Source: Bilabrum cf. latius
Lineage: Eukaryota
Reading direction: 5' to 3'
Assembly (NCBI GenBank): GCA_965178125.1
Contig: OZ237747.1
Coordinates: 806,001-870,000 of the forward strand
Length of the DNA stretch: 64,000 nt
Shown here: positions 12,006 to 62,700 of the stretch, in pieces
How positions within the stretch are numbered: the stretch's first letter is position 1
How the letters are laid out: every line of letters starts with the position of its first letter
Notes under the pieces: generated by a model
Database searches by the model: none
Seen by the model: only the letters and a program-made list of their open reading frames with translations
Told to the model about the DNA's origin: nothing
Position numbers and translations under genes: made by a program

Positions 12006-14519
12006 ATGGCCGCCAATCCTTCTACTGCTGCGACGCCAGATCGCTCGGGCTCCGGCGACATCCCCAGTTTCGATTCAATGGGATACGTTGCAATGAAGCG
12101 GAGCTTTTCGGGGTTGTCGGCTTCGGTGCAAAAGCAGATCCTGGACGTTCTTTTGGAGTCTGAAGTTCGTTTGTGGAGTGTAGTTCTAGGGATAAGCTTT
12201 CTCTGGCAAGGCCTGCTCATGGCACTCTCCGTGGTTGTAAATGATAGGCTGCCTCTCAGCTACACCACGGATACGCCGCGAGTTGTCGACTCGACTGTGC
12301 TTGGTATCGCGATAGCTAGCTTGTGTGTTTGGGTTCTGTCTGTTGGACTTCTTGTTTTCTTGGTATCATCCGTATCTGAAGGGTGCTTGTGCTGTGCAGG
12401 CAGCGCTAGTCGTAGTGGCAAGACAGTGGTGGAAGGGCCAAACGTTCCGTTGATGTCTTCTGCAGAGAGAATGCAGGGCGAGTCTTCAAGCGCGCGTGCT
12501 GCTCAGGCAGGAATCTAGGCCATGGAAGTGCTGGCAAGCCCCAGCGCTCTTGAAAGAGGAGCTCAGGTACGTCCTAGTAGCGGGGCCAGCACAGCGTCGC
12601 TGACAGGAGACGCCTCGCCTGCAACTCAAAATGATTCCAGCAGCCAGGAAAGCGGGCGTATTCGCGTGGCGGCCTTACTAATGTACCCGATCCTTGTCGT
12701 GCTGCTCGTGCTCGCACAGCCTCAGTCGCCGATCAGGGGCAGCTCGCTCGTCGTGGCGACGCAGTTCTACGCCCTCGGGGCGTTCTTCTACTCTTTGCTC
12801 GCCTGGTTCGGAGCTGTGCTGGACGCCAAGTCCACCGGCCAGCAAGAAAGCAGCGAAAGCAATGCAGACGAACAGCTCAGGTGGCGCATCCGGACCGCTG
12901 CGGCAGCTGCGCCACAGTTGGTGGTCGGAAGCGCGGCCTCGGGACGGAAGGGACTTGATGCTATTGCCGAGGAGAGCGATAATACTAAGCCTTCCGTGGC
13001 CGCCCCATCCACGCAACAACAAAGTGCACAGAGCAACAGTGGCCTGCGACGAAGAAGCACCAAGCCAGCGAGCGCCTCTGTACTGGACCTGGTGCACCAG
13101 GAAGAAGGCTCCAACGGGAAACTGCTCGCTCGCTCACGAGCTGGTGCTCAGACGGCTTCCGTCAACCCGTTCATCCGAGCGCTGGACGTGCGTGTGGCGG
13201 CAGTCCAGCGAGCGGGGGGCGTGTACAGCCACATGATGAGCCAGAGGTCGGCTTTGCACGTGTCTGGATTCGTGCTCATCGTGCTGATCGCGATTGGTCG
13301 CAGCTTTCTGTCACCTGATGCGATCAGCTACCTGTCGAGTGCAAACACCAAGGAGATGATGGCTCATCTGGCCTGCTTTGCTGCGGCGCTTGCCGTGTAT
13401 TGGACGGTGCTGGCCATACTCACGGACTCCATGTTTAGTGCCGTCATAGTAAGCTATGTCTACTGCCGGGTGTGGGTGGAATCGATGCGCGACCTACTCA
13501 CGATCGTGCTCGTGGCCATCGAGCAGCGAGCCTGCGCGCTGGATGGGTACGCAGACATGGTCAAAGTGGTACTGTCAATGCGTAACATGACCTTTGGATA
13601 GTCGCAGGACGCCATGGACCGCGTGATGGGCAGGGCTTGCGAGGATTCTGGGGCCGAGACGACGGATGGCGAGCAAGCCGGCGGGTATGGGTCCTCTGCA
13701 GGCAGGACACGGCGAGCGAACTCGGTGGCAGGGATGGGAATGCAGCTTGGGATGAATGCAGGGTGGGCCTCAGCAGCAAGCATGGGCGGGGCGGGGGTCA
13801 TAATGGTGGAGGAGGACAGCGAGGAGGATGCTGACGATGCGGATGGCAGGGGGGAAGGAAAGCACCGCCGCAGTGGACAGCGGGCTGGCACGCCGCAGAA
13901 CGACCCGGTCCATGGAGCTCCGAGCAACCTGGGCATCCCGGATAAATCCGTGCTTTCCATTGCCATGTCGGAATGGTGGCGCGCGTTGGACGGACCTGTC
14001 ACGCAAGTGGTGCAGTCGCTGTACGCCAAGTCGCAATCCAGGCTTGCTCTCGTGGTCGCGTTCAGCGTGGTGCTGGCCATCTTGCTCGCGTCGAGGTACG
14101 TCTATCTCCAGGGTGACTTGGTGGCATTGTTCGAGGACGGTGTCACGCCGATCGCCTTTGTCGTGTCTTTGCTTTCCTTCGGGGCTGTGATCATGGTGCT
14201 GCTGGAGACCCTGCAGATCAAGTCCACGGTCGATGCTGGCCTGTGCGCCTCCATTGCGAGGGTGCAGCTGAATTCGAAGGTGGCCGCAGAGGCCCTCGAC
14301 TTGCGCAAGGTGGATGACACTGACAGTACCCTTTCGGAGATTCAGCACGCTCTAGAGCAGATGAAGCTGATCCAAGAGGCGCTGCAAGAGAGTCCGCGGG
14401 TCGTCCCGCTGGTGTTTGGCATCCACGTGCGGTACGAGCTGCTGTTTTCGTACGCGACGACTGCGCTCATCACGGCGCTTGTTCCGTTCGCACAGAGGGC
14501 GGTGGTGGGGGCGGAGTAA
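12006..14519 (+). CDS. Multi-pass membrane protein (~837 aa); C-terminal half resembles GR-like/DUF3537 7TM proteins; 2 in-frame TAG
   Basis: ORFs 12006, 12522 and 13614 are in one frame, with TAGs at 12516 and 13599. About 9 hydrophobic segments; ends TAA, followed by AT-rich non-coding sequence. Confidence 0.7.
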
Positions 14520-15894: not shown

Positions 15895-18800
15895 TCACCG
15901 CACCGACAGCCCCACCGCCCCCTTCGCGGCAGCCTGCGCCGCAGTTCGATCGAGAGCCGCCGTGTCTGCCCCGGCCAGGTTCTTCTCTACCTCCTCGCGA
16001 ATGGCAGGGATGCCCCTGACGACAGCCTCCGGGAGAAGAAGCGTCAGCCCGCGCACCCGCTTCATCTCCGTGTCGAGAGCCTGGATCGCCGTGCGGTTGG
16101 ACCACAGGTGCACGGCACCCAGCGCCACCACGAACAGGACGCAGGCCGTCAGCTGCCATCCTAAGAACCGCCTCACGACGTCTCGCGCCAGCTGCCTGTG
16201 AATGGCGGTCGCCTCGTACAGGCCGCTGTCGACGAAAGTGCCGGCCAGTTTTTTGAACTGCTGGGCCTTTGTGGCGGTGAATCGTCCTAGCAGACGGTCG
16301 CGGCTGTCCCCCTGAGCAACCAGACCTCCTGCCGAGGCGGCCTCGGCTTTGTACGTCCCGACGATGTCGAGCGCATCTTCCGTCAGGTGCTGGATGGCTC
16401 CATGCAGACCAGTGCCCAGCAAGCCATCCATGAATGCGGAGCAGTCCTCGTGCGAGAAGGTGGTCTCGGCCTGCATGACGTACCCCAGGCTGCGGCCCTG
16501 CGCAAGTGCAAAGTGCGTCTCGTTCTGTCCTGACTCAGGAGCTGACTCGCCCGTCGGGTGAGACGCCGGGGAGAAGCCGCCTCCCTTGGACAAGCAACCA
16601 TCCTCTAACATCAGGTGGTGCATCTTGTCGCTTGCCTTAAGGGTGCCGTCAACGTGCATCACCTCCGAGCCGTACAGCAGCCCGTTCTGCAGCCGAATCA
16701 CCGCAGCAGCACGATCGTGAACGGCAGAGGCATAGAAGTCAATCGCTGCGGCAGTCTCCGACTCAAGCGTCCTCGCCACGTAGTACTCCAGCTGCAGAAC
16801 TGCAGCGTGCCTCTGCTCCGAGTAGTACACGGCGTTGTCCAGCCGCTCGATGTCGTCGAAGCTTGCCGTGGTCCACTCGCGTAGCAGTGCGAAGCATGCA
16901 GCAGCCACGAGCACGGGCATGCAGAACCGCACCAGGTTGAGTATCACCCTGCTCGAGTCCTTGGTGGACTCCCTCTCCTCTGCGCGGTTCTTCTTGAACC
17001 TGATCTTGGACCAGTCCATCTCCTCGACCTGAGAGCCAGCACCTTGCCCGCCCTATCCGTTGCCTGCGTTGTCTCCGCGCACGGACACGACAGCGTCCTG
17101 GTATCCCCCGGTGGCGTCGTCATCAATGCCGTCTTCCTCCGCCTGTATTTCGTCGAGCCTCTTCTGCGCGTCGTTCCGAAGAAACTTGACCACCTTGCGA
17201 GGGACGTGGAAGAAGATCCGATGGATCCCATCGCGGGCTCCTTCCACCCCTACGATGATCGGGATGACGACGCCGATGAGACTCAGCATCAAAATGCCAA
17301 TGCTCGACATGGTGATGCAAAGCTCAATCAGCTCGTTTCTCTCCTTGTGCTCCTCCGTTCTCTTGTGCAGCAGCTGAGAGCTCTCGTTTGCGCCCGCAGC
17401 CACCGATTCGGGCCCGTTGGCGCGGACGAAGAACACGATGGAGGATCGGTCGTACAGTGCCCACTTGGAGGGATCGATGGCCTCCGAAAGTCTAACCTTG
17501 GTCCCAAATTCCACGCCTGCATCCAGCAGGCCAGTCGGTCGCACCACCTCCTCGCCGGCTTGGAGGTTTCTCACCGGCAGCACGTCCTTCACGTACAGCG
17601 AGTGCAGGGCAACGGAGGACTTAATGCCGTCGTTGAGTCCCATCGAGTCGATCGCTGCCTAAGAATAGCCCCTGCTCGTCGCATGCACCCACTGCGTGAA
17701 GTTCACTGGCACGTTCGGCTCGAACGTCTTGGACCCGCTCGTCTCTGCAGCTTCAAGGTATAGCTCGTTGTGGATCTATGCGTACTCGCTGCGATGCACC
17801 TCCAGTCTGTGCACCATCCCATCCCACCTGTCTTGCGTGTCCGAGATGGCTTGGCTGCTCAGTACGAGGGATTGGCTGTCCAGCAGCAGCTCTTGCATCA
17901 CCACCTGCCTCTCACCCGACCTCGCGACCAGCTCAATGTCGGACAGCAGGCCTAGCAGAAGCACGCGATTCAAAGTAACGTAGACCGCAGCCAACACCCC
18001 AACGACGATAAACAGGACAAACAGCGCCGTGTTGAGGAGCTGCAGGCTGGTCTCCTTCACGTTGGACATGCGACGGAGAGTCCGCCGCAGCTGGGAGGTG
18101 GCGCTCGTGCGACTGGTCTTGGACGTGATTGAAGACCGCTCCCCATCGTTGTGATGGCGCTAGTACGGATCACTGGGGGGATCCCTCCGGCCAGCCACGT
18201 GCAGCCTCGAGTCACCTCCGGTCGCTCGCGTTGAGAGTCCGGGCGATTTCCTTTGACCTCGCTTGGCGAGCGCAGACTTTGGACCTCCCTGGTCTGGATG
18301 GATGCTGAACGTAACGTGCGCTTTCCCCGGCTCCATGTGTGTCCCAGACACATCCGAGTTGTCGGTTCGGCCGGATAGCATCTCGGCACTGCCACGGGCG
18401 TCGCTCCTTGTGATGCGATCCAGTGTGCCGCTGCCCTCTGCGAAGGTCCCCTCGAAGGTGTGCAGGCTCTCGACATCCACGTGGGTGCTTCCGCCTTCTG
18501 AGCCGCGCTCGACGGTTTGCAGACGTGGAACAGCATCGCTGGCATTCGACGGCTTGTGCGGCGATGATGTTGCTCCAAGGAGGGCAGCGGCACCGTTGGT
18601 CGAAGGAGCGAGGAGGCCATCCGCTAGCGCGTGCTAGACGTGCGCTATGCCAGCGTTTGACACAGCTTCGGATAGCTCTGCTGACCCCTGGCTGTTTGAA
18701 GCAGCCAATGCATGCACTACATTTGCAGCTGAAGCCGATTCGACCCCATCCACGCTCGCACTCCTCCTTCTCTGCCCGGTGCCAGAGTGTGCCTGCTGCA

Positions 18801-21800
18801 GCTGGACACGTCGCTCCCTTGCAGACACAGGGGCCTCCTCCGCCTCTTTGCTCTCGACAATAGGCATGCCCCTCTTGCTCTTCTTCTTCTTCTCCTTCTA
18901 CATGGAGTGCTTGGAGTGAGTCAGCGCTAGCGAGCTGCCCCCCCCCTGGCTGCCTGACCCCTGCTCGAGCTTCTCCAGATCAGCCAGCAGACTGTCCCCA
19001 CCTGCGGTAGAACCAGTGGCCCCAGAGACCCGCTTGATGTGTTTTGTCCCCGATGATGAGCTGCTCCTGTGGTGCTACGGGTGCGGACGTGGAGCATTCA
19101 CGGCGTACGATAGGCGCACTGATGGACTTGCCGAGCGCGGCTGCCCAGCAGGAAACTTCTCGCGGTCCTACTCCCGCTCGTGTTCATCGTCTTCGTCGTC
19201 AACGTCAGTGCTACAGATCTGAATGGCCCCGCTCTGACCGAGACCTGCCGCCAGCTGCACCCAGGAAGGATCAGGCCTTGGAGGCCTCGCGTCCACGGCC
19301 TCGTCTCGAAGCGGCATGCCAGGAATGCTAGGTTTTCTCTTCTTCTGCAGCAGCGACCCCTCCTTATCGGCACCAGGATGACGACGATTAGAGGCAGCTC
19401 TGGCTTCCCCAAGTCCGGCAGCTGACGAGGCTGTGTTGCCATGTTTTGACGAGGTTTCGCCGTGATGTTCTTGACCGCTCTGCTTTCCACCAGAAGCGGT
19501 CTAATCGTGCTCTGCGTGTGCAAGCTGCCGCTGCAAGGAGCGGGCATTCGGGGTTCCCCCGCTGCCACCGACCAGCGAGGCTCCACCCATGTGAGACGCA
19601 GCAACGGACGAGCTGTCTTCCTCGGCCCAGGGTCTCCACTTCAAAAGACACACTTGCAGCATGTCCGGCGGTGTGCTGAGGTCAGCACCTCGACGAGCGC
19701 GCCGTCCGCGCCCAGCTGCCCTGCTGTCGGAGCCGTACTCGCTCGGCATGGCCTTTCCAATTGCACCCAGCATGCTGGCACGCATGGGCATGCTCGTTTG
19801 CAGCTGCAGCCACACCTTCATGTGGTTGTGTGGCAGGATAGCGTGCCTGGGCAGCGTCTGCCCAGCGGAGGACTTCATGAATTGCCTGCTGGGCCACAGC
19901 ACGCCGGGGGCACCGAGCTCCGTATCGGTGTCGTCCGTCTCTTCCAGCATTGCGAGCTCGTCCGCTCCGACAAGGTGCGGCCGGTGCCCGCTGCGGGTGC
20001 TCCTACCGCCGCCGCTGCTCTTGCTCTCCTTTCGAGAGCTGCTGCCTCTTGAGGAGGGTGTGGTGGCGATGGCATCGACGTCTGAGCTCTTCCCACTAGG
20101 CCCAGCAACGCTGTGTCGACGAGATTGCTTGCCGCTCGATTTCACAGCCGAGGCTGCCTTGGCCACCACGCCATGCAGCTTCGTGGTTGCCACCGTTGGC
20201 TGCGACTCTGCGAGGTCGAGGGCGAGTGGCAGGCCGTTCTCGATCCCCCTCGCCTCGAGAAACTGACCCAGCTGAGGCATGTACTTGTGAAGGAAGACCC
20301 CGCCGCGCCCGATGTTGTCTCGTGAGATCCGGAGAGCCCGCTACGATCTGGGGCAGGCTCCGGTGACGACTCCCGTGGGAGCCATGAAGAGGATGAAGCC
20401 GGTGTTGTCGCTGATCGGAAGCGGCTGCATGATGCCTCCGAATCCTTCCTCCATCTGGCGCACCGACAGCAACACAGGGAAGATGTGCCCGGCCTTGTGA
20501 AGGCCGAAGACCTGCCGCGAGGAATTGAGCATCTCCTCTTTCCCGGATGCCAGGAATCGACGAAGGAAGTGATCGTGCGCGGCGGCGAAAGGCTAGGGTA
20601 GCACGGTCGACAGGTTCTGACCGACGAGCTCTCGCTTGGTGTACCCGAACATGCTGGTGGCAGGCTGGTTCACGGAGACCATGTTGCCGAGGGTGTTTGG
20701 GTCCTGGGAGGCGACGAGCACAGCGACATTTTCGCTCTGTGTGGCGACTTCCAGCTGCTGCCCCATCATGTCAAAGTCAGCCCCAGAGATGCCCCTGGTG
20801 TGCAGCCTGGTGGCTTCCTCCTCCAGCACGTCTGCCTGCTCCACGTACTTGGCCGCGAGCATCGGGTCGTTCTTGATCTCGATCAGAAAGAGGGCGTACT
20901 GCCTGAGTGCCACCACGGAGCTAGGGTTGATCCTCAGGAGCAGCTGATACGCCGCGTCAGCCGCCTCGGTGCTGTCGTGGATCCTAGCTCCGATCTCCGA
21001 GAGCCGGTCGACATTGACCACCGTGTCCGTCAGCCGTTGCCAGAAGTCTCGGATGGCAGACCGTGCTCGCATTGCTTCCATGCTCGCGGCCTCCTTGGTC
21101 TTTTCGAAGCGGACGCGCGCCTGGACGGAGACACGACCGCCCACCGATTGCTCCAGCGCGGCCGCTGAGATCTGCTGCTGCCTGCAGAATACGAGGCACT
21201 GCGTGTCGATGGGCGGCTGCAGGGCAAGGGCTGCTTGCAGGTGCGTCTGTTCGAGGTGTCTGTTCCCTCGGATGTCTCGGAGGAAATCAGCTGCGATGAT
21301 GTGCATGCTCGGGTCGCCCTGGAAGAACTCGAGCGCCTCTGCGAGCAGGTGCTCGGCCTCTTCTGCTCCGTCAGAATGCTCGAAGAGAGCGGCGTTCCCG
21401 TCCAAGGTGGACCCGGCGGCACCGCCCCGCCCTCCGAACCTCTTCTTGCGGGCGTGTCCGATAGCAGCTGCGGATGCGAGGCCACCCGCTTCGCCAGTCC
21501 CCGGGGAGGAGGACACGTGCCCGGTGCGCATGTCTAATTCGGCTTGGGCGAGCATGCGGCGGAGCTTCACCTGCACCATCTGCGGGGACGAGAGCTCGAA
21601 CACGTCATCGAAGCTGCGCCAGCGCATGTCGGTGACTGTCCAGCCGGCGAATGCCACGAAGGGCAGCGCCATGAGGAACGCTAAGCCAGCTCCATCCCGG
21701 CTTGTAGGCACGAGCAGCAGCGAAGCGCACTGGCACACTGCCGCCCAGATGATGACCCCGCCGAGCGAGACGAACCACTGGTTCGCCTCGTGAGCCGAGA

Positions 21801-22793
21801 AGGGGAGCCCAGCCAGGTGCTGGTACACGAGATACACGCCGAGCGCGAGGGAAGCGATTGAGAGGACCCACGGCGACACGTATTCGACCAACGAGAAGGC
21901 AGCACAGGCAATGGCGATGGCAATGAGCGCATATGCATGCACTCGTCCATCTGCCCTCGCAAGCGGTTGGGAGCTCGCCCGCCTTCTGTCCATCAGCGTG
22001 GTCGCAGCCACACACGCGAAGGCTACCCACGCCACGCAAAGCAGCAGGGCCAAACCGATCATGACTATATGACCACCATCGTAGCAATCTAAGCTACTCG
22101 AGAACCAGGTTTCATTCCCTTCGACTCGCTCGCATGCCACAGTAGCAAGAAGGGATCGCAGCACTGGGATGAATAAGACGGTACACGCTCCATCCGCGGA
22201 AATCCGAAGCACCTGCACTAATAATTAGAGAATCAGATCGCCCGTAGTCGCTTAAAGCAAAGCCATTTGCATTACTCCGATTCAACACCAGCAAACAATC
22301 GCTAGTCTCGGTGCCATGTGTTAAAACATCCTCTGGCAGCTAAACTCACCCGGATTGCCACCGATGGGGAATTGGAGAACTGAAATTCTTCAGAATCGGC
22401 GTAAATCTTGCCAAGGATCAAGAACAGCGCGATGACGATGGCAACAATGCTTGCAGAAGCCGAGAACAGTACAACCACGGCTTTGCTAGCGGGTGAGCCG
22501 GCCGAAGCGAGCCCTGTCATGTCACCTGACACGGCACCTAGAGCAAAGCTGATGTATTTCATTGCCTCCATGTCATGCCAATGGAAAGGGGCAGCTGCCG
22601 ACAGCGGGAACGCCAGTACCTGAGGTGAAGTACCGAGAAGAAGGCGGGTGCAGCCGCTGATGGGAAGCAAACACTGCGCCCTCGGCACAAACGTACGCCC
22701 CGAAAGACTCACTTGCAGGCTGAAGAGAAGGATAAATACCATCATTATCCAACGAGGCGTGCGAATTCCTTTCGAACCGCTTAGCGCTGCCAT
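15895..22793 (-). CDS. Large PAS-domain transmembrane protein (TmcB/TmcC-like, ~2,220 aa); exons 22793-22713, 22619-22350, 22212-15895; 11 in-frame TAG; true start may lie further upstream
   Basis: Introns 22712-22620 (GTGAGT..CTCAG) and 22349-22213 (GTGAGT..TGCAG). N-terminal TM block, TPR-like 'YQLLLRINPSSVVALRQYALFLIEIKND', PAS 'VNQPATSMFGYTKRELVGQNLSTVLP*PFAAAHDHFLRRF...FGLHKAGHIFPV', further TMs. Eight ORF-track pieces share one frame; ends TGA. Confidence 0.85.
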
Positions 22794-23247
22794 TAAGCGC
22801 TTCAATCCGAGAGCAGCCCATCGCACAAGCTCCTCCGAGGCGTCCGACTAGTCTTGGAGCTGTAACGTTGGTGTGCGATGCGCCTGCGCGGCTTCGATCC
22901 TACGATGGGTGGGAGAATGAGCTGAACTTTTTATTTGCCCGCCGGCATTGCTACCAGATGGCTGCTCGTCTTGTCGAGATGGCTGGATGCGAAATGAGCG
23001 CACTGCGAGGATTCGAGAGGCTTACAGCGCACCAGAAGGTAAAATAGCTCATTATTTTCGTCGTGGACTATCACCAACATACTTCAAATAACTCTCACTT
23101 GCGCGAAAGCTCCTGTTTGACTTCATGGCTGCACTGAATGCTTCGGGATGAAGCAGTGTCGCGAGGTGACGCGCTCTGCAGGATTGGTCGCAAGCGCGGC
23201 GCCTAATGTTCCGCAAAAGCATCAGCTGGGATCGGCTTCACGCACGA

Positions 23248-30167: not shown

Positions 30168-30971
30168 TCACGCCGGGATCCGCTCGAAGGCATAGTCGTA
30201 CACGTGTCCCGTGTGCTCGGGCTCTAGCCTGGATATGACGTCCACGAGCATGGAGGCGGATTTGTCCGCATCGAATAGCTTCTCAGGCTTCACGTTTCTC
30301 TAAAACGGTTTGCTGAGGTCAGTCGCAACGGTGCCTGGGTGGAGGCCGACGACCACGGCCTTCTTCTTCGACCGCCTGTGCATCTCGATTGAGAAGGTCT
30401 TGGTGAACTGATTCTGGGCCGCCTTGGCTGCCCTGTACGAGTACCACCCCCCGATCCCGTTGTCAGTGATAGATCCAACGCGGGCGCTCATGGAAGCGAA
30501 CACTGGCCGCCCGCCGGCCACTCCCGTGTCAGCCAGCAGCTTGCCAAAGTGCTTGCCGAGCAGCATAGGTCCCATCGTGTTGACCTAGAAGTTCGCCATC
30601 ATGCCCTCGATTGAAATGTCCTCGAATCGCCGTTCCGGCTCAATATCGCTCTATCCTCCGATATTTCCATGCAGCACTCCAGCCACATTGAACAGGAGCC
30701 CCAGCCTGATTTCGTCAATCTTGAGCTACTCCTCGACGTGATTCTTCGCTGATGCAATGGATTCTTCATCTAACAGATCCATAACAAGCGGCTCTATCCT
30801 GGTCGATGTTCCAAGCTCACCGCGGAGGCTAGAAGCCACATCCTCTGCAGATGCTCTGGATCGGCAACTCGCGAACACTACACCGTATTGGCCTCCCTGA
30901 ACCAGCTACCTGACAACCGCCCGGCCTATTCCTCTGTTTGCCCCTGTAACAATTCCAGCAACGCGATTCAT
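30168..30971 (-). CDS. Short-chain dehydrogenase/reductase, CsgA/C-factor-like (267 aa); 5 in-frame TAG
   Basis: 'IVTGANRGIGRAVVR*L', 'NVAGVLH', 'F*VNTMGPML', 'SARVGSITDNGIGGWYSYRAAKAAQNQ', 'LHPGTVATDLSKPF*RNV'; ends TGA. Confidence 0.9.
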
Positions 30972-33633: not shown

Positions 33634-34396
33634 ATGGCAGCTGCTGGTCCGGGCGATGTAGATGCTGCAGCAGAAATCGAGACACCTGCGCTACGCCGTC
33701 TCCGGGAAGTGAGGATTCAGAGTAGATTTGGCTTGGAAATCGCAATTTGTACCACCAAGTCCTATCTTTCTATATTTACCGCAATTTTGCCGCAGGAGCA
33801 AGCTCGATGGGAAACGGATGAGTTTATAATGCAAGCAAGTGGATGCACGATTGAATGGGATGAGACTAACGCCGCAGCGCCCATCACAATCCATCTTGCT
33901 CTCCCAGTAAGCAGCAGGACGGCCGATTCTCTTGGCTGCTTGCTACCGGTGTTGAACCGCAAGTACAGCTTGTTCCGAGCAGATCCAATAATTTTTCGAA
34001 GATTTTGTTGAATTCGCTTTATTTACGCAATGGCAGGACAAAATTAAGATCTTGGATGGTCCCGAAGAGGAGAGCCCGTACGGAGGGCGCACCCTGGAAG
34101 TTGCCGTATCGATATCCGCTCATTATCCCAAAGAAAGGCCCTTCGTCCGCTTTAAGACGATTCCGTATCATCCCCAAGTACTTGCTTCTGGATTTATTTG
34201 CCCCGACCACGCGAACGGTGGTCTCAGGTGGAGCGAGGAGATGACCATGCTTGGTTTGATTCACTATCTCCGCGGACTCTTCGGCCGGATCGAACCATGC
34301 ACTTGCATTTCCAGGCAAGAAATCTTGGATGAAATCCTCAGTAACAAGGGAGAATTTCTGAAGAAAGCCAGGAAGGACGTTGAGCCAGCAGCCTAA
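33634..34396 (+). CDS. Ubiquitin-conjugating enzyme E2 family protein (~181 aa); exons 33634-33708, 33796-33906, 34037-34396
   Basis: 'ALRRLRE|E', 'GPEEESPYGG...YPKERPFVRFKTIPYHPQVLASGFICPD'; introns GTGAGG..CGCAG (87 nt) and GTAAGC..GGCAG (130 nt); ends TAA at the normal end of the E2 fold. Confidence 0.8.
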
Positions 34397-47000: not shown

Positions 47001-48306
47001 CGAAGCGGGGGCCGACTCCGCTTCGACTTCAGTGGCATCTGACTCGGGGGGTGATGCTGCCACTGTGGACGCTCCGGATGCACAGCGCGACGGGTCCGTT
47101 GGGGTGCCCGCTGGCCTGTCTGGAGCTGCAAGGCAGCGCAGGGGTGCGGCACATGGCGACTCCTCTGGGGAACAAGAATCAGAAGATAGTGCCCTACCCA
47201 CAGAAGGAGGCGAGCTGGCAGCGATGAGCTAGGACCTGCGCTCTGTGACGGCTTGCTACCTGGACCGTGGGGCCATCGATCGAGACGTGATGGCACTCTG
47301 GGCAGAGCAGCAGCTCAAGCGAAGGTCGAGAGATGCGGGTGTGCCACCCACGTCCCTCCCTTCTTCGAGCACGCAGTCGCTGCAAGCACCGGGCAACGCC
47401 AGTGGGGCGCCCGTGCTGCTGGAGCGCGAGTCCGCGGTCTGCGCCGCGTTCCGCGACCTGGACGCAGAGATAGGCGAGCAGACTACTCTTGCGGGTGACT
47501 CCAGCAGCGAGGGGGCCTGGTGTGAGCTGACCGGTATCAAGATCGAAGAATCGATCCAAGACAGGTTCCGTGTTGACTTGGGGGCAGACCGGGCGGACGT
47601 GTGCACGGCGATGGGGGGTCTAATCCGGGTAAGGGGGCGATTTGATCCGATCGTTTGCTCCCTGGGAGCCCCCATGCGGAAGCAGATCGCCGCTGCGATC
47701 GATGCCTGCGACAGCACTGGGACGGCCTCTGTGCTTGCGGGGCTCAGGGCACAGCTGGGGGGCGCGATGGGGGCCCTCACCGGGCTGTGTCCCATGGCTG
47801 GGGAACAAGAGCAAGCGGGGGCGGGGGCGGGGGAGGCTGGATCGGGCCAAGGCAAGGGCTCAAGGCCAGTATCCCCAGCCAGCGTGCTGAATTTGTTCGG
47901 AACCGACGAGTCAGTGCGAGCCACCACCGCGGTGCCAACGCAGGTCGCCTCAAGCGCAACTTCCAGCAGCTCCATCTCCAGCGGCAGCACGCAGCAAGAC
48001 AGCCTGCAAATCCCTGCTCTGTGCAGCGTTGCCACATCGCTCGGTATGGTTCGTTCGAGGCTGCCAATCTGCTCCAAGTTGGCCGCGCGCGTCATCGTAG
48101 ATCTGGCCGAGCAAGAAAGGCAGCGGGTGGTTTCACGCAGCGCCCAACTGGCGTCAGCTGGCGGCGCAGATGACGGCCCAGGCTGCGGCGTTCAGGCAGA
48201 GATGGACGGTGTCAGTGGCAAGCAGGGGTCTTCATCTATAGGCACTGCTGCGTTAAGGCGCCAGGATGAGCTGGATGCATCTGGAGGCGCGATTTCGCTC
48301 TCATGA
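44021..48306 (+). CDS. Zn(II)2Cys6 transcription factor, paralog B (~1,382 aa); exons 44021-44699 and 44837-48306; about 12 in-frame TAG
   Basis: Begins ATG GAC TAG TAG; 'KKACQPCADAKRKCSDSRPCPRCVRLGIA*QC'; Gln-rich region; phase-1 intron 44700-44836 (GTGAGC..CGCAG, 137 nt); ends TGA. Confidence 0.8.
47633..47850 (+). repeat. Copy 2 of the ~220 bp near-identical inverted repeat
   Basis: Matches the reverse complement of 35582-35805. Confidence 0.92.
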
Positions 48307-48568: not shown

Positions 48569-51500
48569 ATGGCACACACTGTAGATCTTGACACACTGGA
48601 AAAAATCCAGAGATCTTCGTCTCATGTGCGTAATATCTGCGTGCTAGCACATGTTGACCACGGGAAAACTACGTGAGACAACATCCAGAGTGGTTCTTGA
48701 AGTAACACTACAACATCAGTCAGCAGTACTCCTTCTCAGATAAGCAAAATCTTTCGCAGACTGTCTGATAGTTTGATTGCGTCTAATGGTATTATCAGCC
48801 CGACCCTTGCCGGACAGCTTCGCTACATGGATTCAACGGAGGAAGAGCAACTCCGCGGTATCACTATGAAAAGCAGCGCAATCACGCTCCTACACTACGA
48901 TAGGCCGTTTAGAGACATTAAGAAAAAGCTCAAGGCCAAGGCTGCTGCGCGAGCCGATGAAATGCTGTCCAAAGGAGCGACCGTATCGGAGTGCGAGCTG
49001 GTTCGAGCTACGTTGCCACAGCGGGTACCGTACCTGGTTAATTTAATTGACTCACCCGGCCATGTAGATTTTTCAGCGGATGTTTCGACAGCTGTTCGCA
49101 TGTGTGACGGGGCTCTTGTTGTCGTTGACGTGGGAGAAGGCGTGTGTTCTCAGACGCACGCCGTTCTGAAGGCGGCTTGGTCCGAGCGTGCTCGCATGGT
49201 TCTGGTCCTTAACAAGGTAGACAGACTCATAGTTGAACTTGGTATGACTCCAGATGATGCCTACGAACACTTGCGGCAGATTATCCAGGAAGTGAACGTG
49301 ATCTGCAGCAACCATTTCCGGGCTGGGCTGCTTGAATCCGAGCAGGAAGACAGTGACGCTGCACTAGGAACCGAGAGATCCTCATCGACTCCAGCTCTAT
49401 CCCAAGCAGCAGCTGCTGCTTCCGAAGGCGACCCGGGCAAGATTGCGGTCGGGGAGAGCAAATCGGGCGATGAGCCAAAATCACTCGATTCCGACTTGTT
49501 CGCTCGCTGGGCTGTCGACGTGGACGAGAAGCAAGAGAGCAAGAGCTTCTTCGACCCTTGCAAAGGGAACGTGGTTTTTGCGTCTGCGAACACATCGTGG
49601 GCGTTCGGTATTGAGGATTTCGTTGGGCCGGTTGCAAGCAAAACGGGGCTGTCCGAGCAGCTGCTCCGTAACACTCTCTGGGGAGATTTTGCCCTGAAGC
49701 TTCCCGATTCCGATAAAACCAAGGGGAAAAGCGCAAAGGGAAAGGGAAAGGGCAAGTTGAAGAGCAAAGGCAAGGGTGCTTCGAAGGCTGACGAGACATC
49801 GGAATCAAGCGCTCCCAAAGTCGTTCAGATTAAGAGACGAAGCGCGGCTCTTGCTGGCGGAGCTACAGCCGTGGGATTGGGTGCGATATCAGATCCTGGT
49901 ACCAAGAAGGCGCGGCGCCCGATGGCAGCGGAACTCGTCCTGGACAGCCTCTGGAGGGCATACCGGTACGCTAAGCAGGAACCGAACCCGAAAAAAGCGA
50001 GCAAGCTGGCGAAGCAATTCGGAGCTGAAATCACGGAGGGCGAGCTAGCGGGGTGCAAGGACGCCACGGCCATGCTCAGGTGCCTCATGCGCGCGTGGCT
50101 GCCACTACCAAAGGCGATCATGCGCGCCGTGGCCAAATCGCTGCCTTCGCCCGACGAGGCAGCGCCGATCCGAGTCGATCGGATCATGCCTGAGGTTCCG
50201 CAGCGAATGGCGCCGCGCCTTCGCAGCCACGTGGAGCGAGTGCGCCGCGCGGTGGCTGCGTGTGACGGATCGGACGACGCTCCGTGCGTGGCCTTTGTGA
50301 GCAAGATGGTGGCTGTTCCCCAGAAGCAAGTGCCTGCTCCCTTGCACGCAGCCTCGTCGAGTGGGGGCGATGCACAGGTGGCCGCATCTTCATCTTCATC
50401 TCCTGGTGCTGCGGCGAGCGGGGCCTCCTCCACCCGCCCCCCAGGGGATCGAAGCGGCCTGGGGGGGTTCCCCGGCAGCGACCTGCAGGGATTCGAGAAG
50501 CAGATCGTGCGGAACCTCGGCGGCGCCGCGGCGGACGCCTGGGGAGGGGGTGGCGATGCAGGAAAGTGCCCAGAGGTGCGGGCTCAGCTGTTTGCGCGCG
50601 GCGCCTCGGATGTTCCGCTCGCCGAGTCGCCAGAAGGATCCACTCGAGATGCCGCGGAGATTGCTGGCTCCGGTGTACGCGATTCCAGCGGTTCCAGCGG
50701 CCTGAATTCCAGAAGCGACGAGGATTCCGAGGTGTTTGTAGGATTTGCGAGGGTGTTCAGCGGCGTGCTTCGGCCGAACCGCCCTGTGTTTGTGCTGGGG
50801 CCCAAGTACGACCCCTCGAGAGCGTACCGCCAAGGGGGGCAGCACATTTCCCAGACGTGGGCCCCTCTGGGCCTCTACATGATGATGGGCAGGGAGCTCA
50901 GCGCGCTGCGGTGCGTCCCCGCCGGGTGCGTCGCGGCTATTTCCGGTTTGGAGGGTCACGTGCTCAAGGCTGCGACGGTGTGCAGCACCCCTGCCTGCCT
51001 GCCCCTGAGCCCCATGGCGTTCTAGACCATCCCGCTGGTGCAGGTATCCGTTGAGCCTGGCGACGTGGCCGACCTGCCCAAGTTGAGGCGGGGGCTGCAG
51101 CTCCTGAACCAGTCAGATCCGTGCGTGGAAGTATCCGTTGACTCGAGTGAGTTTGTCGGTCCGCAGTTGCTCCGTTGTTCCCTTCCCACCGCCGATCCGA
51201 CAGGTGTCGACTGTTTTCGCTGTGCATGTTTCTCGGGATCCGCCGCGGATGGCTGTGCCGTAGCATGCCTTTTTCTTCATTTTTAGAGCTGCATCAAATG
51301 GTCCCTTGCATTCCTTCCTGCGTCCGCTTTCATTGCGCAGATGGTGCCTTGCTCGTGGCTGCCCTCGGGGAGCTGCACCTGCAGCGGTGCCTCAAGGAAC
51401 TCGAGAGAAGGTTCGCTAGGTGCAAGGTACTTCCCTCTGACCCCATCGTGAATCTCAAAGAGACCATCGTCGGGCCGGCGCCGAGAAGCACTGCATTGCA

Positions 51501-53439
51501 GCGCTGGAAGGAGGCGAGGGAAGCCGCCTTGGAGATTCACAGAGGAGCGCAGCTGGCGGCCACCCTCCCTGCCGAGCAGCAGGACGATGGCGATGACGCA
51601 GCTGCGGCGGCAGCCGAACCTCAATCGAAGGAAGTCGATGTCGACGCGGATGCCGCGAAGACAGACGACAAGGCGGCATTCGAATTAGCCGCGAAGAAGA
51701 GGTGGCTCTACCAGGCAGGTGCTAGGCTGGACCCGAGCAGCGGCACAACCACAGTGCTTAGCACAACCCCAGTCGGGGACTGCACGGTTCGACTCCGGGT
51801 CATCCCGCTCCCCGATCCGATCCGGGATGCACTGACCAAACATGCCAAGGAAGTCGCGGAATTGCGCGGCGCCAGCGGAACCGACGAGATCGGAGCGGAC
51901 GGCACCCCTACAACACTGGACCGCAAGACGAGCGGTCCGGAGGAAGACGACTCGGAGCCGGAAACACCGACGAAGGAGCGCAGCACCGGCTCCAGGGCGA
52001 GCAGCAGGAGCCATCAGGACGCTCGTCACACCGCGTCGGCCCGCCGACTCCGGGACGCCCTTCTGACCGCAGCCGAGGAGGCCGGCGGGGCATGGCCAAG
52101 GAGGGTTGCCCTTGCCATGGAGATAGGCGACGCGGCCGTTGGACCGAACCTGCTCTGCTTCGAGGGGCGTCCAGACGGTACGGAGCCTGAGGGTCCAGCC
52201 GGCAGTGTGGCGGCGGCACTCACAGGCCGGGCGTGGCAGGGCGTTGCCGGTGGAAATGTAGGCAGCAGTGCCAGCGCGGAAAGCGGCGAGGCTCGGACCG
52301 CGGAAAGTGCAGGTCTAAGTGAAGGTTCCCCAGAGGGTTCCCCAGAGGACACCAACGTTGCCGTCGCGCCCTCGCTTCCAGCAACGGTAGATGCCGCCGC
52401 GGGATCGGTGTTTTCCTGCTGGGGCCGGGCGGGGATCAGCGGGGAACACATGGAGGCCGCATGCAGGGAGGCGGCATCGTCTGGGGCATCGCATGCCAGC
52501 GCAGCCTCCACTGCAGACGGCAACGGAACCGGTGCCTGTTCCGGTGCAGGTGCAAGCAACGGCGGCGCAGGTGCATCACGGGCTGCTGCATCAGCATCGG
52601 CACCTGGCGGGCATGCAGCGGGCCTGGATGGGCAAGCAGCGAGCACATCACCCTGGGACAGGTCTCCATGGAGAACAGACACGCCGTCGGGTCGGTCCGC
52701 CTTGTCCGTCCTCGCCCAAGTCGCAGGCGCAATGAGACAGGGTTTCGAGCTGGCTCTGAGGGCCGGGCCCTTGTGCGGCGAGCCCGTGTGGGGCGTATGC
52801 GTGTCCGTACACGACGTCATTCTGCACGGCGAAGAATGGGCAGGGGCGCTTAGCCCCGCCAGGGAACAAGAAACCGGTGTGACGAGTGATTCTACCGTCG
52901 CCATGGGAGGAAGCGTGCTTGGCTACTTGCTGGGGTGCACGCGGGTCGGCAGTGTCCTGGGGCTGGAGACGGGGCAGCGTCGCGTGGTGGAAGCCCTGTA
53001 TGCCTGCGAGCTGCACTGCTCCGCGGGGATGGGCGGCGGGGGCGAATTCCTCGGCCGGTTGCACGGGGTGGTGGCTCGTCGAAGGGGCGAGGTCAGGTCC
53101 GAGGAGGTGATTCCAGGCACAGAGACTTTCGTGGTGCGTGCAGAGCTGCCCGTGGCCGAGTCGTTCGGGTTTGCGACCGAGGTGAGGGATCGGACCAGCG
53201 GCCTTGCGACGTCCCCCCAGATGGTGCTTGCCCGCTGGCAGGTGCTCGATCAGGACCCGTACTTTGTTCCCCGCACTGCCGCGGAACGAGAGGAGCATGG
53301 CGACACGCTGCACAGGGGGTAGGCGAGGAACGTCGCGAGGGAGATGGTCGACGCGGCCAGGAGGAGGAAGGGCCTCAGGGTGGAGGAGCAGCTCGTGCAG
53401 AGCGGGGAGAAATAGAGGACGCTCGCGAGGAAGAAGTGA
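48569..53439 (+). CDS. EFL1: Elongation factor-like GTPase 1 (EFL1/RIA1), ~1,529 aa; exons 48569-48672, 48760-51146, 51341-53439; 3 in-frame TAG
   Basis: '[28 protein letters not shown]', 'RGITMKSS', '[11 protein letters not shown]', 'NKVD', '[11 protein letters not shown]', 'GELHLQRC', '[10 protein letters not shown]...RTSG.A..PQ', C-terminal '[22 protein letters not shown]'; introns of 87 and 194 nt; ends TGA. Confidence 0.93.
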
Positions 53440-54441: not shown

Positions 54442-54646
54442 TATGTGATTGGAACGTGAGAAAGAGCCGTGGCGATGAGGTGCACTTCGTCCATTTATAC
54501 AGTGCTGTATACGGTTTTGCAACACCGCGTGACATCGTGCGACCAAGAATACCGCGATTGGGGGACAGCGACCGCGAAGATGCGAGGCGCAGTTGCTCCT
54601 ACGCAACGCTTTGCGTAATCCTACGACTTGCATCAATTGATCCAGT

Positions 54647-59199: not shown

Positions 59200-59709
59200 T
59201 CCGTGCATGTTGTACCTGGATCCGGCAGGAACCGTGCGACAGATCTAGCGTGATTTCTAGTAGGCCTCCATGCGCACTTGGGAGCTGGCTCGAGCGGCGC
59301 GACTCGCGGCAGAATTGAAATAGGTAGATGGCACCCACGAGGTGTCAATAGTGAAGTATTGGCGCGCACTCATTTGAGCGGTGCGCGCAAAACTGCTGGC
59401 TTGGCCAAAGCAGCGGCATGCAGTGGCGCGTGGAGACTCGGAAGTTTGCTTCCTATGGCCCCGCGCTGCGCCTGTCCGCCCTTGCCGGCAGCGATTATCA
59501 TGGGCGCTTTTTCGAAGCGTCGCGTTATGTTTGTGATTCCCAGCTAAATGTAGTTCGGTGATGTGCATTTACTGGTATGGTTATTGTGTTCGCTCGAAGC
59601 AAGGCCTCAGTGATTTTGGATGACCCTCACGAAGAACAATTGGATCCAAACCAGGAAAGCGCGATGTGCTCCCACTCCTGCGCTCAGCCTAGCTCGGCCA
59701 CGTTGCTCA

Positions 59710-62700
59710 TTACTGTCCGATGCGCCTGCGCTTTCTGCTGCGACCATTGCGAGGTCGTCCGGCTTCAGCCTCCCTTTCTTGGTCGAGATCCGGATCCTAT
59801 CGCTCGACACCTTCTGTCGATGCTACCTCGCCCCCCCCAGCATATTGTGACTGTGCCGCCTCATCCGGATGGCCGATCCCCCCACCTATTCTACGCCTTG
59901 CTAGGCCCCGGCCCCGGCCCCGACCCCGGCTCGATCTGGCAGACGGCCGGTGAGCCCGCCGCCTCTCCGCAGCTGTTTGCGCACGAGCTCCATCGCCGCC
60001 GTGTGCGGCAGTGCCAATGCCACCGCGTCCGGCTGTGGCGTTGGTCGTGTCACCACGACTGGCATCAATTGCAGGCTCTTCTCCTCCTTCCTCGTCTTCT
60101 TCCTGTTCATGTCTCCGCTTCCGACCCCTGCTTCCAGTGAAGCTGATCAGCGAGCCCGGTGCAGCTGGAGCACCCACCGACGCCGGGCTAGCACTCTGGC
60201 CAGTCTCTACCGCTGGCCTGCTCTGCTGTATGTCGCCCACACCGGAATCCTAGTGGGGGTCTGAGCTGGAGCTGGAGCTGGAGCTGGAGCTGGAGCTGGA
60301 GCTGGAGCTGGAGCTGGAGCTGGAGCTGGAGCTGGAGCTGGACGCAGCCGGAAAATCGGTGCCTTCACCGCTGGTTGATGCACCAGTCGCTGGATATGAT
60401 TCATCAAGTAGTCCAGCGGCTGCGTGCAATCTAGGTGGCGTCCACTCTGACCTCTCTCCTGAGCTTGTACCTGCACGTGTCGATACCATGAAGGCCCTGC
60501 GGCGGCCGGCGGTCCCAGAATCGATGGATTGACTCCCCATACCCTCTGATTCATGCGCTGGACCCCCAACAGGATCATCCTACCTCGCTCGACCTGAAGT
60601 TGTCCTGCGTGCTACAGGTGCAGGTGCAGGTGCAGGTGCAGGTGCAGGTGCAGGTGCAGGTGCAGGTGCAGGTGCAGGTGCAAGTGCAAGTGCAAGTGCA
60701 GGTGCAGGTGTAAGCATGAAATCGGCAACTGAGGCCTGATGCTACTCGCGAGGCACCATTCGGTCAACACTGCTAGTGCGATACCGGGTGCGCGATTGAT
60801 CGCTTGGCTCTCCCAGCATATCCCCTGCCAGTGGCGACGACCTAAAGTCGATAAAGTCATCCGCCGCTGTAGTTGCCATTGCTTCAGCCGATTCGATCCC
60901 GTATATATCAGAATCCAGGGACATGATCGACGCAGGGGAGGAGCTGCCGCGCATCCGCTCGTGAACGAGGGGACTGTCTCGTCCAGATTCGTCGTTCAAG
61001 CCGCTAGCAGTCGTCTCTTCCATCTAGCTTCGAAAGCGCTCGCCGTAGATAGCAGGTGGTGGCGAGCCGGCACCAGAGGCATATCCGAACGGACTGAGGT
61101 CAACTACATCAGCTACTAGGTTGGCATTGTGGCCCGCTGGCATTCCTAGTTCGTGCGCTCGACCAGCTCTTGGCCCAACAATGCGCAGCCTGGCACGATC
61201 TGCTTGGGGCGACTGATTGCCTGCGACCTCTTCTGCAACACCATTACTTTGCCAAGCGCGTGTAGAGGCAGGTTGTGGTCTGCATACCATGGGTGCAGAA
61301 GGTGACAGCCACTACAATAGTCTGTCAATGGGCCCCAAAAAAGGACCAGAAGACCCAGAGCAGGGCTGAGAGCGGCTGATTCTTGCCAGAATTCTATCAA
61401 TGCCAGCTTCACGGAGTCTATCCAGGTCGACTAGGCACAGGTCGACCCAGCGAATCAGGATGTCAGCTGCATTGCTACACAATCCAGGCAACGCTTGCAC
61501 TTGCGGGTCGTGCAGAGCTCGAAATATCCACTTCAAGATCGTATCGCTATACAGCCGCGATGCCGGCACCCCTTCATGTTCCGTGATGCGACAAAGCAGG
61601 GAGCACACAGAGCTTGTCATTGCCACCGACTGGCCAGGTGATGGCTATGAGAACAACGAACAAGCTCTGAGGCCGGCCGGCAAAACGCTTCGACTGCAAC
61701 TCAAGCTTGATGCAAGCCTATGCAAAATATCACAAGCCTATACGCGGTCCTGAACAGAGTAGGTGGATGTATCAATGCCTTGCACCACTGTCGGGATGAT
61801 TGCAGGTGCAACATATTCCACAAAGTAGCCTGGAATCTGCTCAACAAATCGCTGAAGGGGGGATAGCAGGCGCTGAAATCCCACCTAGTGACCTCGAACA
61901 AGTATGCTTACCATCGAATCGCTAAATACATGTGATGCAATCCCACGATGTGCTAGGGCGAGCGCATACAGCAGCTCAGATGCACATGGAAACCACTCTG
62001 CAGGTGCTTCACTAGATGCTGCCGAGAGCAACTGGATCAAGCCAAGACGCACAAGCTGCTTTTTAGCACTGTGCTTGAATCGCTTCTAGCTCAAACAGCA
62101 TTGAATGAGCTTCAAGGCTGCTCCCCAGACACGCTGACCATGATCGCTGCCGCCTTCTGGGGGCAGTCTGCGTAGCAGTCGAACGAGACTACGGAGTCCT
62201 CCTGAGGCAGCAAACGTTCCGAAGCAAACGGAGTTTGCTTCCAGCAGCTTTGTAGCAGCACCAATCGACCTAATACACACTTCGTGCGATTTAGCTTCAA
62301 ACTGCTGCACCAAGGCCAGAACAAGGCCAGACTTCCAGGCGTCCTTTGGTCGCACTTGAGGAGCCCGTGGCCCGGCGATGAGGCACAATACTGACTTGAC
62401 TTCGTGCTGGGAGCCCGATCGAAGATGGTCGCGCAGCTGTGTGTGCACAAGGGCAGCTCTGGTGGACTGCAGAACCACATCGGACATCGGCAAGCTTCGC
62501 AGCGCGCACATTGCGAGCTCCGCTCCGGCACCCTGCAGGTTGTCCAACATGGAATACACTAGGGTTGGGCAGCGCTCGAGGCGCTGCAGCAGCAGCCTCT
62601 TGAAGATCCGCGACAGGTGAGTCGCCGCCTGAGGCGCAGGATATGCAAGCCTGCCTTCACGTCGTAGTCGCTGCTCCGTGCTGTCTGTGATCCAGACTAG

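Follow-up and report, generated by a model that had tools for sequence, protein, structure and literature searches.

The window, as we call the whole 64-kb stretch of DNA analysed here, has a GC content of ~60% and comes from the nucleus of a eukaryote with densely packed genes and few introns. We assembled 19 gene models, 14 of which are single open reading frames (ORFs) and five of which have GT..AG splice joints that appear in the transcript-like contigs of runs X5-X7. Seven such joints occur in X5-X7 contigs, whereas the DNA run X2 shows none of them. These spliced joints, together with genes of housekeeping type (EFL1, mitochondrial L28, E2, and DIS3L2), identify the source as a cellular eukaryote. 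The joints of the ubiquitin-conjugating enzyme (E2) gene (33708/33796 and 33906/34037, in X6 and X7 contigs) leave a spliced frame that is open from ATG to TAA, and those of the EFL1-type GTPase (introns 48673-48759 and 51147-51340, joints in X5-X7) likewise leave an open frame. The single joint in ZnB (intron 44700-44836) is seen in X5 and X7, and its paralogue ZnA is matched by an unspliced X5 contig (35776-39414, 0 differing letters) that covers 15 of the 18 TAG triplets in its frame. Three ORFs with neither a family match nor a matching contig were left out of the models and are listed at the end of Table 1.

Table 1. Genes, codons and omitted ORFs of the window discussed in the text
Feature	Position	Strand	Codons	In-frame TAG	Terminal codon	Basis
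DIS3L2-type RNB exoribonuclease	2361..6518	+		4	TGA	Pfam RNB 1.2e-91
g05, membrane protein of no known family	12006..14519	+	837	2	TAA	
TAA terminator of g05	14517..14519	+				Orthologue stop at same aligned position
PAS/TmcB-TPR membrane protein	15895..22062	-	2055	11	TGA	
Short-chain dehydrogenase	30168..30971	-		5	TGA	Pfam adh_short 6.8e-21
Mrp/NUBPL ATPase fused to DUF971 (HCF101-like)	31116..33077	+		4	TGA	Pfam ParA 7.6e-73 and GBBH-like_N
TAG at conserved Gln of PPGTGDIQ in this ATPase	31935..31937	+				Aligns with Q in 8zkc_A
E2 gene (exons 33634-33708, 33796-33906, 34037-34396)	33634..34396	+	181		TAA	Spliced contigs
TAA terminator of E2 gene	34394..34396	+				End of UQ_con match
ZnA, Zn2Cys6-like large gene	35234..39244	-	1336	18	TGA	
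ZnB, ZnA paralogue	44021..48306	+	1382	12	TGA	
EFL1-type GTPase	48569..53439	+	1529	3	TGA	Pfam GTP_EFTU, EFG_IV, EFG_C
TAG at conserved Gln, 8 codons before EFL1 stop	53413..53415	+				Alignment with 5anb_K
Kinase-like g19 ORF, past window's end, no in-frame TAA	59710-63999	-		13	TAA	
TAA terminator of g19 (59712-59710), then directly TGA (59709-59707)	59707..59712	-				Sequence read
Omitted ORF	1012-1383	-			TAA	
Omitted ORF	1587-2138	+			TGA	
Omitted ORF	22272-23021	-			TAA	

Across the 17,800 sense codons of the 19 models, TAG occurs in frame 100 times, spread over 17 models, whereas TAA and TGA do not occur at all; in-frame UAG is thus frequent in genuine expressed genes. Sixteen models end in TGA, three in TAA, and none in TAG. 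An earlier note on this DNA had likewise seen no TAA within any gene and no gene ending in TAG, and both statements hold for our models. Its count of three TAA ends was also reproduced, but it had listed 17 TGA ends where we find 16, a difference of one that turns on how weak ORFs are treated. The sequence contained in ORFs of 300 codons or longer amounts to 34,059 nt; it more than doubles, to 78,426 nt, when TAG alone is treated as sense, but reaches no more than 36,582 nt when only TAA is. UAG makes up ~13% of the Gln codons in the window. The CAA:CAG ratio in the models is 182:486, so that CAA contributes 27% of CAR codons, and a Gln-coding TAA used in the manner of TAG should therefore appear in frame ~37 times (Poisson probability of zero ~5e-17). 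The two off-frames of the same models contain 113 TAA in 35,600 triplets, as against none in frame. When 18 long ORFs were extended with TGA as the sole stop, their frames contained 12 in-frame TAA, nine of them upstream of the opening ATG and three at or after the 3' end. The absence of in-frame TAA is beyond chance, is not accounted for by GC bias, and is not an artefact of defining ORFs with TAA as a stop. In the compared stretch, 30 of 35 TAG are covered by the listed X5-X7 pieces with 0 differing letters and are therefore not removed by editing; the contigs that carry these unchanged TAG also carry spliced joints.

The meaning of TAG was assessed from aligned residues. Only two TAG fall in strongly conserved columns, and both fall on Q. 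One lies near the C terminus of the EFL1-type GTPase, where it aligns with the Q of 'aekqrtl' (EFL1 "EKQRTL") in chain 5anb_K, named in its PDB entry 'Elongation factor Tu GTP-binding domain-containing protein 1'. The other is the "GDIQ" position of the HCF101-like ATPase, a column in which 150 homologues have Q 91 times, H 37 times, and P 8 times. The column of a second TAG in the ATPase domain is variable (E 21, A 19, S 17, and Q 9 among the 150 homologues), and the TAG positions of the short-chain dehydrogenase are uninformative as to the amino acid. In the alignment of the paralogues ZnA and ZnB, a TAG faces CAA where 9/10 of the surrounding residues are identical, and a TAG-TAG pair of codons faces CAG-CAG. 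Eight TAG of a related gene on the metagenome contig L001 face a sense codon of the window (CAA, CAA, CAG, GAG, GAT, AAG, GGA, and TCT). Q is thus the commonest single partner of TAG, with three of these eight cases and three further cases in the paralogue pair. Together, these alignments indicate that TAG means Gln.

We confirmed the three terminal TAA at the positions previously reported (Table 1). In both g05 and the E2 gene, the stretch from the last conserved residues to the TAA is free of TGA and TAG. In g05, a second in-frame TAA follows at 14532-14534, and the next TGA is 26 codons on from the terminal TAA. The orthologue of g05 on L001 (440/831 identical residues, 53% at the protein level) ends at the same aligned position, ..VPFAQRAVVGAE-TAA in the window corresponding to ..VPFAQQLIVGRT-TGA in L001, and the more remote homologue P0123 extends 2 residues beyond the g05 TAA. 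In the E2 gene, the Pfam UQ_con match extends to model position 138/140, 6 residues before the TAA, and alignments with E2 structures in the PDB extend to residues 144/152 and 146/150. The earlier note's placement of this TAA at the precise end of the E2 fold is therefore correct approximately, but not to the residue. The same TAA is unchanged in the spliced X6 and X7 contigs covering 34037-34501 (0 differing letters), and the next in-frame stop is a TGA at 34427-34429, 11 codons after it. The end of g19 alone cannot distinguish TAA from TGA because the two stops stand in tandem. Orthology confirms one of the three TAA stops, that of g05, and its placement at the orthologous stop position indicates that UAA terminates. 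Termination at UGA is evident from the 16 models that end in TGA and from the EFL1 alignment, which reaches the final residue of 5anb_K (1120/1120).

The L001 orthologue comprises 1,055 codons and contains 10 in-frame TAG and no TAA; its comparison with g05 is the strongest test of UAA as a stop. Because this orthologue shows the same pattern at 53% identity, the reassignment is older than the organism of the window. Among database proteins of close relatives, P0001 ends where the window has TAG, and P0122 and P0237 end where it has CAG. Each of these proteins breaks off at a TAG, evidently because TAG was taken as a stop when they were predicted. By best matches, for which the DIS3L2-type exoribonuclease was used, Cafeteria and other stramenopiles are the nearest relatives with a name; the best matches of the window genes are not to ciliates.

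The nuclear code of this organism very probably uses UAG as a regular Gln codon and retains UAA and UGA as terminators. The earlier note had proposed that UAG is sense and that UAA is not, and still terminates, and this is borne out by TAG at conserved Gln positions, by the zero count of in-frame TAA, by the orthologous stop of g05, and by the E2 TAA 6 residues past the UQ_con match, which is to say by all the tests carried out. An alternative code in which UAA also specifies Gln (UAR = Gln, NCBI table 6), at a frequency too low to show in a GC-rich genome, would fit with a GC3 of 0.67 and with TAA being the rarest of the three stop triplets on the two strands of the window (206 and 185, as against 450 and 483 for TAG). 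The use of A-ending codons (CAA 27%, GAA 31%, AAA 22%) nevertheless predicts 25-40 in-frame TAA, whereas none was observed in the window models or in L001. In-frame TAA are confined to ORF ends or to positions upstream of starts, and one of them stands opposite an orthologous TGA stop. A code of that kind is characterized by UAA at Gln positions and UGA as its sole stop, and here three genes end in TAA; we regard it as highly improbable. Little more can be said for the idea that UAA is avoided and effectively unassigned, with the terminal TAA being read through or causing stalling until the next TGA. In its favor, a TGA follows each of the three TAA within 26 codons (26, 11, and 1). On the other side, the L001 gene stops exactly at the g05 TAA and P0123 within 2 residues of it, and avoidance to less than one TAA per ~6,000 codons would make three of them in the last 38 codons of three genes very unlikely. 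Recognition of UGA but not of UAA by eRF1, in a cell lacking a tRNA to decode UAA, would also be costly, and we give this idea hardly any weight.

Two further readings concern UAG itself. It might carry two context-dependent meanings, Gln within genes and stop at some gene ends, as in codes of the Condylostoma or karyorelict type. The last TAG lies at most 51 codons from the annotated stop in five models, and gene ends were taken here from DNA rather than from transcript 3' ends or ribosome profiling, both of which leave some room for such a code. Against it, none of the 19 models in the window, with 3' ends taken from ORFs, needs TAG as a terminator, and the TAG 8 codons before the EFL1 stop stands at a conserved Gln with the alignment continuing to the true C terminus. 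The known codes of this type deplete dual-use codons near true stops, according to PMC11687900. TAA and TGA are never in frame here, unlike in those codes; only TAG is, and no model ends in it. A context-dependent UAG is accordingly unlikely, if slightly less so than the other alternatives. Finally, UAG could encode another amino acid, such as Glu, Lys, or Leu, given that E, K, R, or L stands opposite several TAG in the paralogue and the orthologue and that E, A, and S are the leading residues in the column of one ATPase TAG. This we consider very doubtful, because Q occupies both strongly conserved positions and is the commonest partner, and because the stops of relatives fall on CAG codons of the window, one transition away from TAG. 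UAG as Gln with UAA and UGA as stops is thus the reading that we retain, on the evidence of 64 kb and 19 genes of one organism and a single 4.3-kb contig from a relative. UAG may terminate now and then, and UAA may at times be read through.

The pattern is that of NCBI table 15, a UAG-only stop-to-glutamine code, a kind already known from a few unrelated protists. The meanings of UAA and UAG nearly always shift together and separations are rare; the earlier note had given this background correctly, as judged by what PMC5304391 and PMC11687900 report. The closest counterpart in PMC5304391 is Iotanema spirale, in which UAG alone changed to Gln, UAA was kept as a stop, and tRNA-Gln(CUA) is the predicted decoder. 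That organism is a fornicate (Metamonada), and thus of an unrelated lineage, its evidence comes from a transcriptome rather than from genomic DNA, and UAA is its dominant stop, whereas TGA ends 16 of 19 genes here. UAG is also Gln, with widespread sense use, in Hartmannula sinica, Trochilia petrani, and Protocruzia tuzeti, which PMC11687900 describes as ciliates with AT-richer genomes that prefer UAA, in contrast to the preference for UGA here. UAG is likewise decoupled from UAA, with UAA and UGA kept as stops, in the rhizarian exLh, in uncultured phyllopharyngean ciliates, and in Scotinosphaera, but it encodes Leu in the first two and Ser in the last (PMC5304391, PMC11687900). The UAR = Gln codes listed in the same two sources (Tetrahymena, hexamitid diplomonads, some ulvophytes, Streblomastix, and Amoeboaphelidium protococcarum) share the stop-to-glutamine change at UAG but extend it to UAA and leave UGA as the sole stop, whereas TAA ends genes here. 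Condylostoma, karyorelicts, and Blastocrithidia also have standard stop codons inside coding sequence, although all three stops, or UAA, are dual in these organisms (PMC11687900) and only TAG is in frame here.

By analogy with the systems described in PMC5304391 and PMC11687900, UAG would be decoded by a tRNA-Gln with the anticodon CUA, as the earlier note had also proposed. Such a tRNA could be obtained from tRNA-Gln(CUG) via one anticodon change and would not pair with UAA, and a tRNA with a UUA anticodon would be absent. The eRF1 would have lost effective competition at UAG while keeping recognition of UAA and UGA. The 64-kb window contains no tRNA gene and no Rfam match, and an eRF1 gene is present neither in the window nor in L001. 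PMC5304391 reports that the eRF1 of exLh, in which UAG is Leu, has GTS, NIKS, and YxCxxxF motifs without obvious change, so that an eRF1 of ordinary appearance would be no refutation of the code proposed here.

Two features set the present case apart. The genome is GC-rich and prefers UGA, while UAA is dominant or preferred in Iotanema, exLh, and phyllopharyngean ciliates, according to PMC5304391 and PMC11687900. Best matches moreover place the organism among stramenopiles, a large group for which our literature searches found no report of a nuclear code variant. It is quite possible, if somewhat less likely than not, that the organism of the window, its 85-91% identical relatives, and the lineage of L001 form an environmental clade with the first nuclear stop-codon reassignment in stramenopiles. 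All members of such a clade would read UAG as Gln with UAA and UGA kept as stops, and they would be heterotrophic flagellates. If the standard code is used to annotate this genome or metagenome contigs related to it, most long proteins will be fragmented, and in the database P0001, P0122, P0124, and P0237 are cut short in just this manner. Each independent separation of UAG from UAA provides a test of whether a CUA-anticodon tRNA and a narrowed release factor suffice to free UAG.

Under the standard code the window holds few long open reading frames: those of at least 300 codons amount to 34,059 nt when all three stop codons are respected. The sum rises to 78,426 nt when TAG is read as sense and TAA and TGA terminate, but only to 36,582 nt when TAA is read as sense and TAG and TGA terminate, so that freeing TAA alone brings almost no gain. 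The gene models take up about 88% of the window, which has a GC content of 57-63%, and family matches identify the products of the long frames as ordinary eukaryotic proteins (see the table). Contigs of the public sequencing runs X5, X6 and X7, whose kind is only presumed and which serve as evidence only for what their contigs bridge, span seven short GT..AG introns; the contigs of the DNA run X2 are without these joints. Once the introns are removed, the frames of E2, the hydrolase, the hemerythrin-domain protein, ZnB and EFL1 are open from ATG to stop. The spliced introns and the frames open after splicing identify the window as cellular nuclear DNA, and an origin from a giant virus is rejected in view of these introns and the cellular housekeeping genes. 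ARAGORN found no tRNA genes in the 64-kb window, and no Rfam family matched it at gathering thresholds.

Products of the long reading frames, and introns bridged by contigs of runs X5-X7
Feature	Position (nt)	Strand	Remark
DIS3L2-type RNB exonuclease	2361-6518	+	long-frame product
Armadillo-repeat protein			long-frame product
PAS/TmcB-TPR membrane protein			long-frame product
Cyclic-nucleotide-binding protein			long-frame product
Short-chain dehydrogenase	30168-30971	-	long-frame product
Mrp/NUBPL ATPase + DUF971 fusion, HCF101-like	31116-33077	+	long-frame product
E2 ubiquitin-conjugating enzyme	33634-34396	+	long-frame product
Two Zn2Cys6-like paralogues (ZnA; ZnB)	35234-39244; 44021-48306	-; +	long-frame products
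Alpha/beta hydrolase			long-frame product
Hemerythrin-domain protein			long-frame product
EFL1-type GTPase	48569-53439	+	long-frame product
Mitochondrial L28			long-frame product
Kinase-like protein (g19)	ending at 59710	-	long-frame product
Intron	33709-33795		GT..AG joint
Intron	33907-34036		GT..AG joint
Intron	40999-41090	-	GT..AG joint
Intron	41692-41819		GT..AG joint
Intron	44700-44836		GT..AG joint
Intron	48673-48759		GT..AG joint
Intron	51147-51340		GT..AG joint

Codon and stop usage was counted in 19 gene models with 17,800 sense codons. TAG occurs in frame 100 times, TAA and TGA not once; 16 models end in TGA, three in TAA and none in TAG. The earlier note had described three genes ending in TAA, at 14517-14519, 34394-34396 and 59712-59710, the last followed directly by TGA, and reading the sequence confirms all three. 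Its statement that no traced gene contains an in-frame TAA holds throughout the 17,800 codons; its count of 17 genes ending in TGA exceeds ours by one weak ORF, and the counts of TAA and TAG endings agree. Three ORFs with neither family match nor contig coverage, 1587-2138 (+), 1012-1383 (-) and 22272-23021 (-), were left uncounted, and the latter two both end in TAA. The last, of 249 codons, scores moderately for coding and has two hydrophobic segments; if a real gene, it would be the fourth terminated by TAA.

ORFs bounded by TAA lack this codon by definition, and we therefore applied tests that do not depend on the definition. When 18 long ORFs were extended with TGA as the sole stop, 12 in-frame TAA appeared, nine of them upstream of the opening ATG, three at or after the 3' end and none inside. 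The two off-frames of the 19 models contain 113 TAA among 35,600 triplets. Codons ending in A are common (CAA makes up 27% of CAR, and GAA and AAA 31% and 22% of their pairs), and a TAA used as a glutamine codon in the manner of TAG would be expected in frame about 37 times, the probability of finding none being about 5e-17; GC bias thus cannot conceal a reassigned TAA.

Termination at TAA is further addressed by the ends of the three genes. The last 305 residues of the product of g05, a membrane protein gene, retrieved three proteins, one of which is encoded on the 4,286-bp metagenome contig L001 (GC 0.545) of a relative. The orthologue of g05 at 147-3314 (+) of L001 shares 440 of 831 aligned residues, and its 1,055 codons include ten in-frame TAG and no TAA. 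The window gene ends in ..VPFAQRAVVGAE-TAA and the orthologue in ..VPFAQQLIVGRT-TGA, with the stops at exactly the same aligned position; the end of P0123, a more remote homologue, lies two residues further on. We consider this alignment decisive for termination at UAA. In E2, the match to the UQ_con family reaches position 138 of the 140 in the model, which leaves six residues ahead of the TAA, and E2 enzymes in the PDB align up to 4-8 residues from their ends. The last exon has no TAG or TGA ahead of the TAA, which is retained in contigs of X6 and X7 that run on beyond it. Readthrough would add just 11 codons, so the E2 stop is not decisive, but it is consistent with termination. The third TAA, in g19, cannot by itself discriminate, being followed at once by TGA. 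On the combined evidence, TAA behaves as a stop, neither as a rare sense codon nor as an avoided or unassigned one, and the earlier claim that UAA still terminates is upheld by the shared stop position in g05 and by the lack of the in-frame TAA expected.

Several features of these loci were observed in passing. A second ORF of L001, 3525-4286 (-), has two in-frame TAG and a TGA end and converges on the g05 orthologue across a spacer that is AT-richer and contains TAA. Between E2 and ZnA, at 34335-35001, the summed contig depth of X2 is about 1,275 versus about 50 elsewhere, and contigs of all runs break or have loose ends there (34464, 34712, 34839, 34871). The contigs ending near E2 stop at 34501 in both X6 and X7 and at 34493 in X2, and loose ends cluster at 34464-34871. 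A repeat present in multiple copies is the probable explanation; searches of this segment for a tandem repeat, a tRNA or an Rfam family found none. A 232-nt inverted repeat with 90% complementarity (35602-35833 versus 47605-47836) lies in the C-terminal coding parts of ZnA and ZnB, where a block of about 70 residues is nearly identical, as against about 38% identity elsewhere, a pattern suggestive of a recent gene conversion or of strong constraint. In the ATPase, DUF971 (GBBH-like_N) stands at the C-terminus, and there is also a long linker of low complexity; this architecture is HCF101-like, and proteins of Cafeteria and Aphanomyces have the same ATPase-DUF971 fusion.

By the aligned sequences, the amino acid read at TAG is glutamine. 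In EFL1, the TAG at 53413-53415, eight codons before the stop, aligns with the Q of 'aekqrtl' in 5anb_K, and the alignment extends through the last residue of that chain. The ATPase TAG at 31935-31937 aligns with the Q of PPGTGDIQ in 8zkc_A, a column occupied by Q in 91, H in 37 and P in 8 of the best 150 representatives of 16,436 matches; a second TAG in this domain falls in a variable column. One TAG lies opposite CAA between ZnA and ZnB with nine of ten neighbouring residues identical, and a TAG-TAG pair lies opposite CAG-CAG. Most other pairings are uninformative because these paralogues are identical at only 445 of 1179 positions, and the TAG codons of the dehydrogenase, all in variable columns, give no information on the amino acid. 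In the stretch compared with the runs, 35 TAG lie in frame; the listed pieces of X5-X7 contigs cover 30 without a single differing letter, so RNA editing does not remove them.

None of the 19 models needs TAG as a stop. Even the TAG in EFL1, very close to the true end, is read as sense. Rare termination at UAG may nevertheless occur.

Three database proteins bear on the reading of TAG in close relatives. P0001 is 85% identical to the product of 51343-53436 and breaks off where the window has TAG; P0122 (91%, 13602-14516) and P0237 (88%, 31515-32297) break off where it has CAG, which is one transition away from TAG. The gene calls behind all three evidently took TAG for a stop. Proteins at 85-91% identity derive from Logan, ENA and JGI data, and their truncation at a TAG or CAG of the window points to a sister strain, sister species or diverged haplotype with the same code in public data, mis-annotated under the standard code.

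The organism is provisionally placed as a stramenopile, perhaps a heterotrophic one, the placement being provisional because it draws on two genes with sampling biased to best matches. The 120 best RNB matches listed have 42-52% identity, except two flatworm proteins at 33%, and are mostly without taxon name or stramenopile (diatoms, brown algae, MAST-4, Chrysoparadoxa). The best named match among them is labelled Symbiodinium sp. KB8 and falls in one 90% cluster together with proteins of Cafeteria roenbergensis. In a quick tree of this single gene with 32 rows, the window protein pairs with Cafeteria (SH-aLRT 92, not starred), a row flagged for unusual composition, inside a group of sequences without names adjoining other stramenopiles. 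The named proteins among the best 20 of the 16,436 ATPase matches are from Cafeteria (56%) and Aphanomyces (54%), plus two that are probably mis-binned proteins of MAGs. Amoeboaphelidium as the source, an idea prompted by its UAR=Gln code, was set aside, the best named matches for the two genes being stramenopiles.

Decoding can be outlined from passages of earlier reports, according to which reading UAG but not UAA requires a CUA anticodon, tRNA-Gln(CUA) is a single anticodon change from tRNA-Gln(CUG), and a UUA anticodon reads both UAA and UAG by wobble (PMC5304391, PMC11687900). UAG would here be decoded by tRNA-Gln(CUA), and a tRNA with a UUA anticodon would have to be absent because wobble would read both codons. 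The eRF1 would lose at UAG and still recognise UAA and UGA. In the rhizarian with UAG=Leu, the classical eRF1 motifs are described as unchanged (PMC5304391), so that eRF1 of this organism may look unremarkable in sequence.

The same sources list UAG=Gln with UAA as a stop in Iotanema spirale, Protocruzia tuzeti, Hartmannula sinica and Trochilia petrani; elsewhere UAG stands for Leu, in a rhizarian and in some ciliates, or for Ser, in Scotinosphaera (PMC5304391, PMC11687900). Full-text searches of the main texts of openly accessible papers returned no report of nuclear stop-codon reassignment in stramenopiles; PMC6733595 concerns plastid codes, and the Carbon-A preprint Tetrahymena only. The code pattern is that of the first four species and is not new, nor does it establish a new principle, but the lineage differs from the described cases, and UGA is favoured over UAA as the stop (16 of 19). 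The case is of interest to those who specialise in genetic codes and has consequences for annotation.
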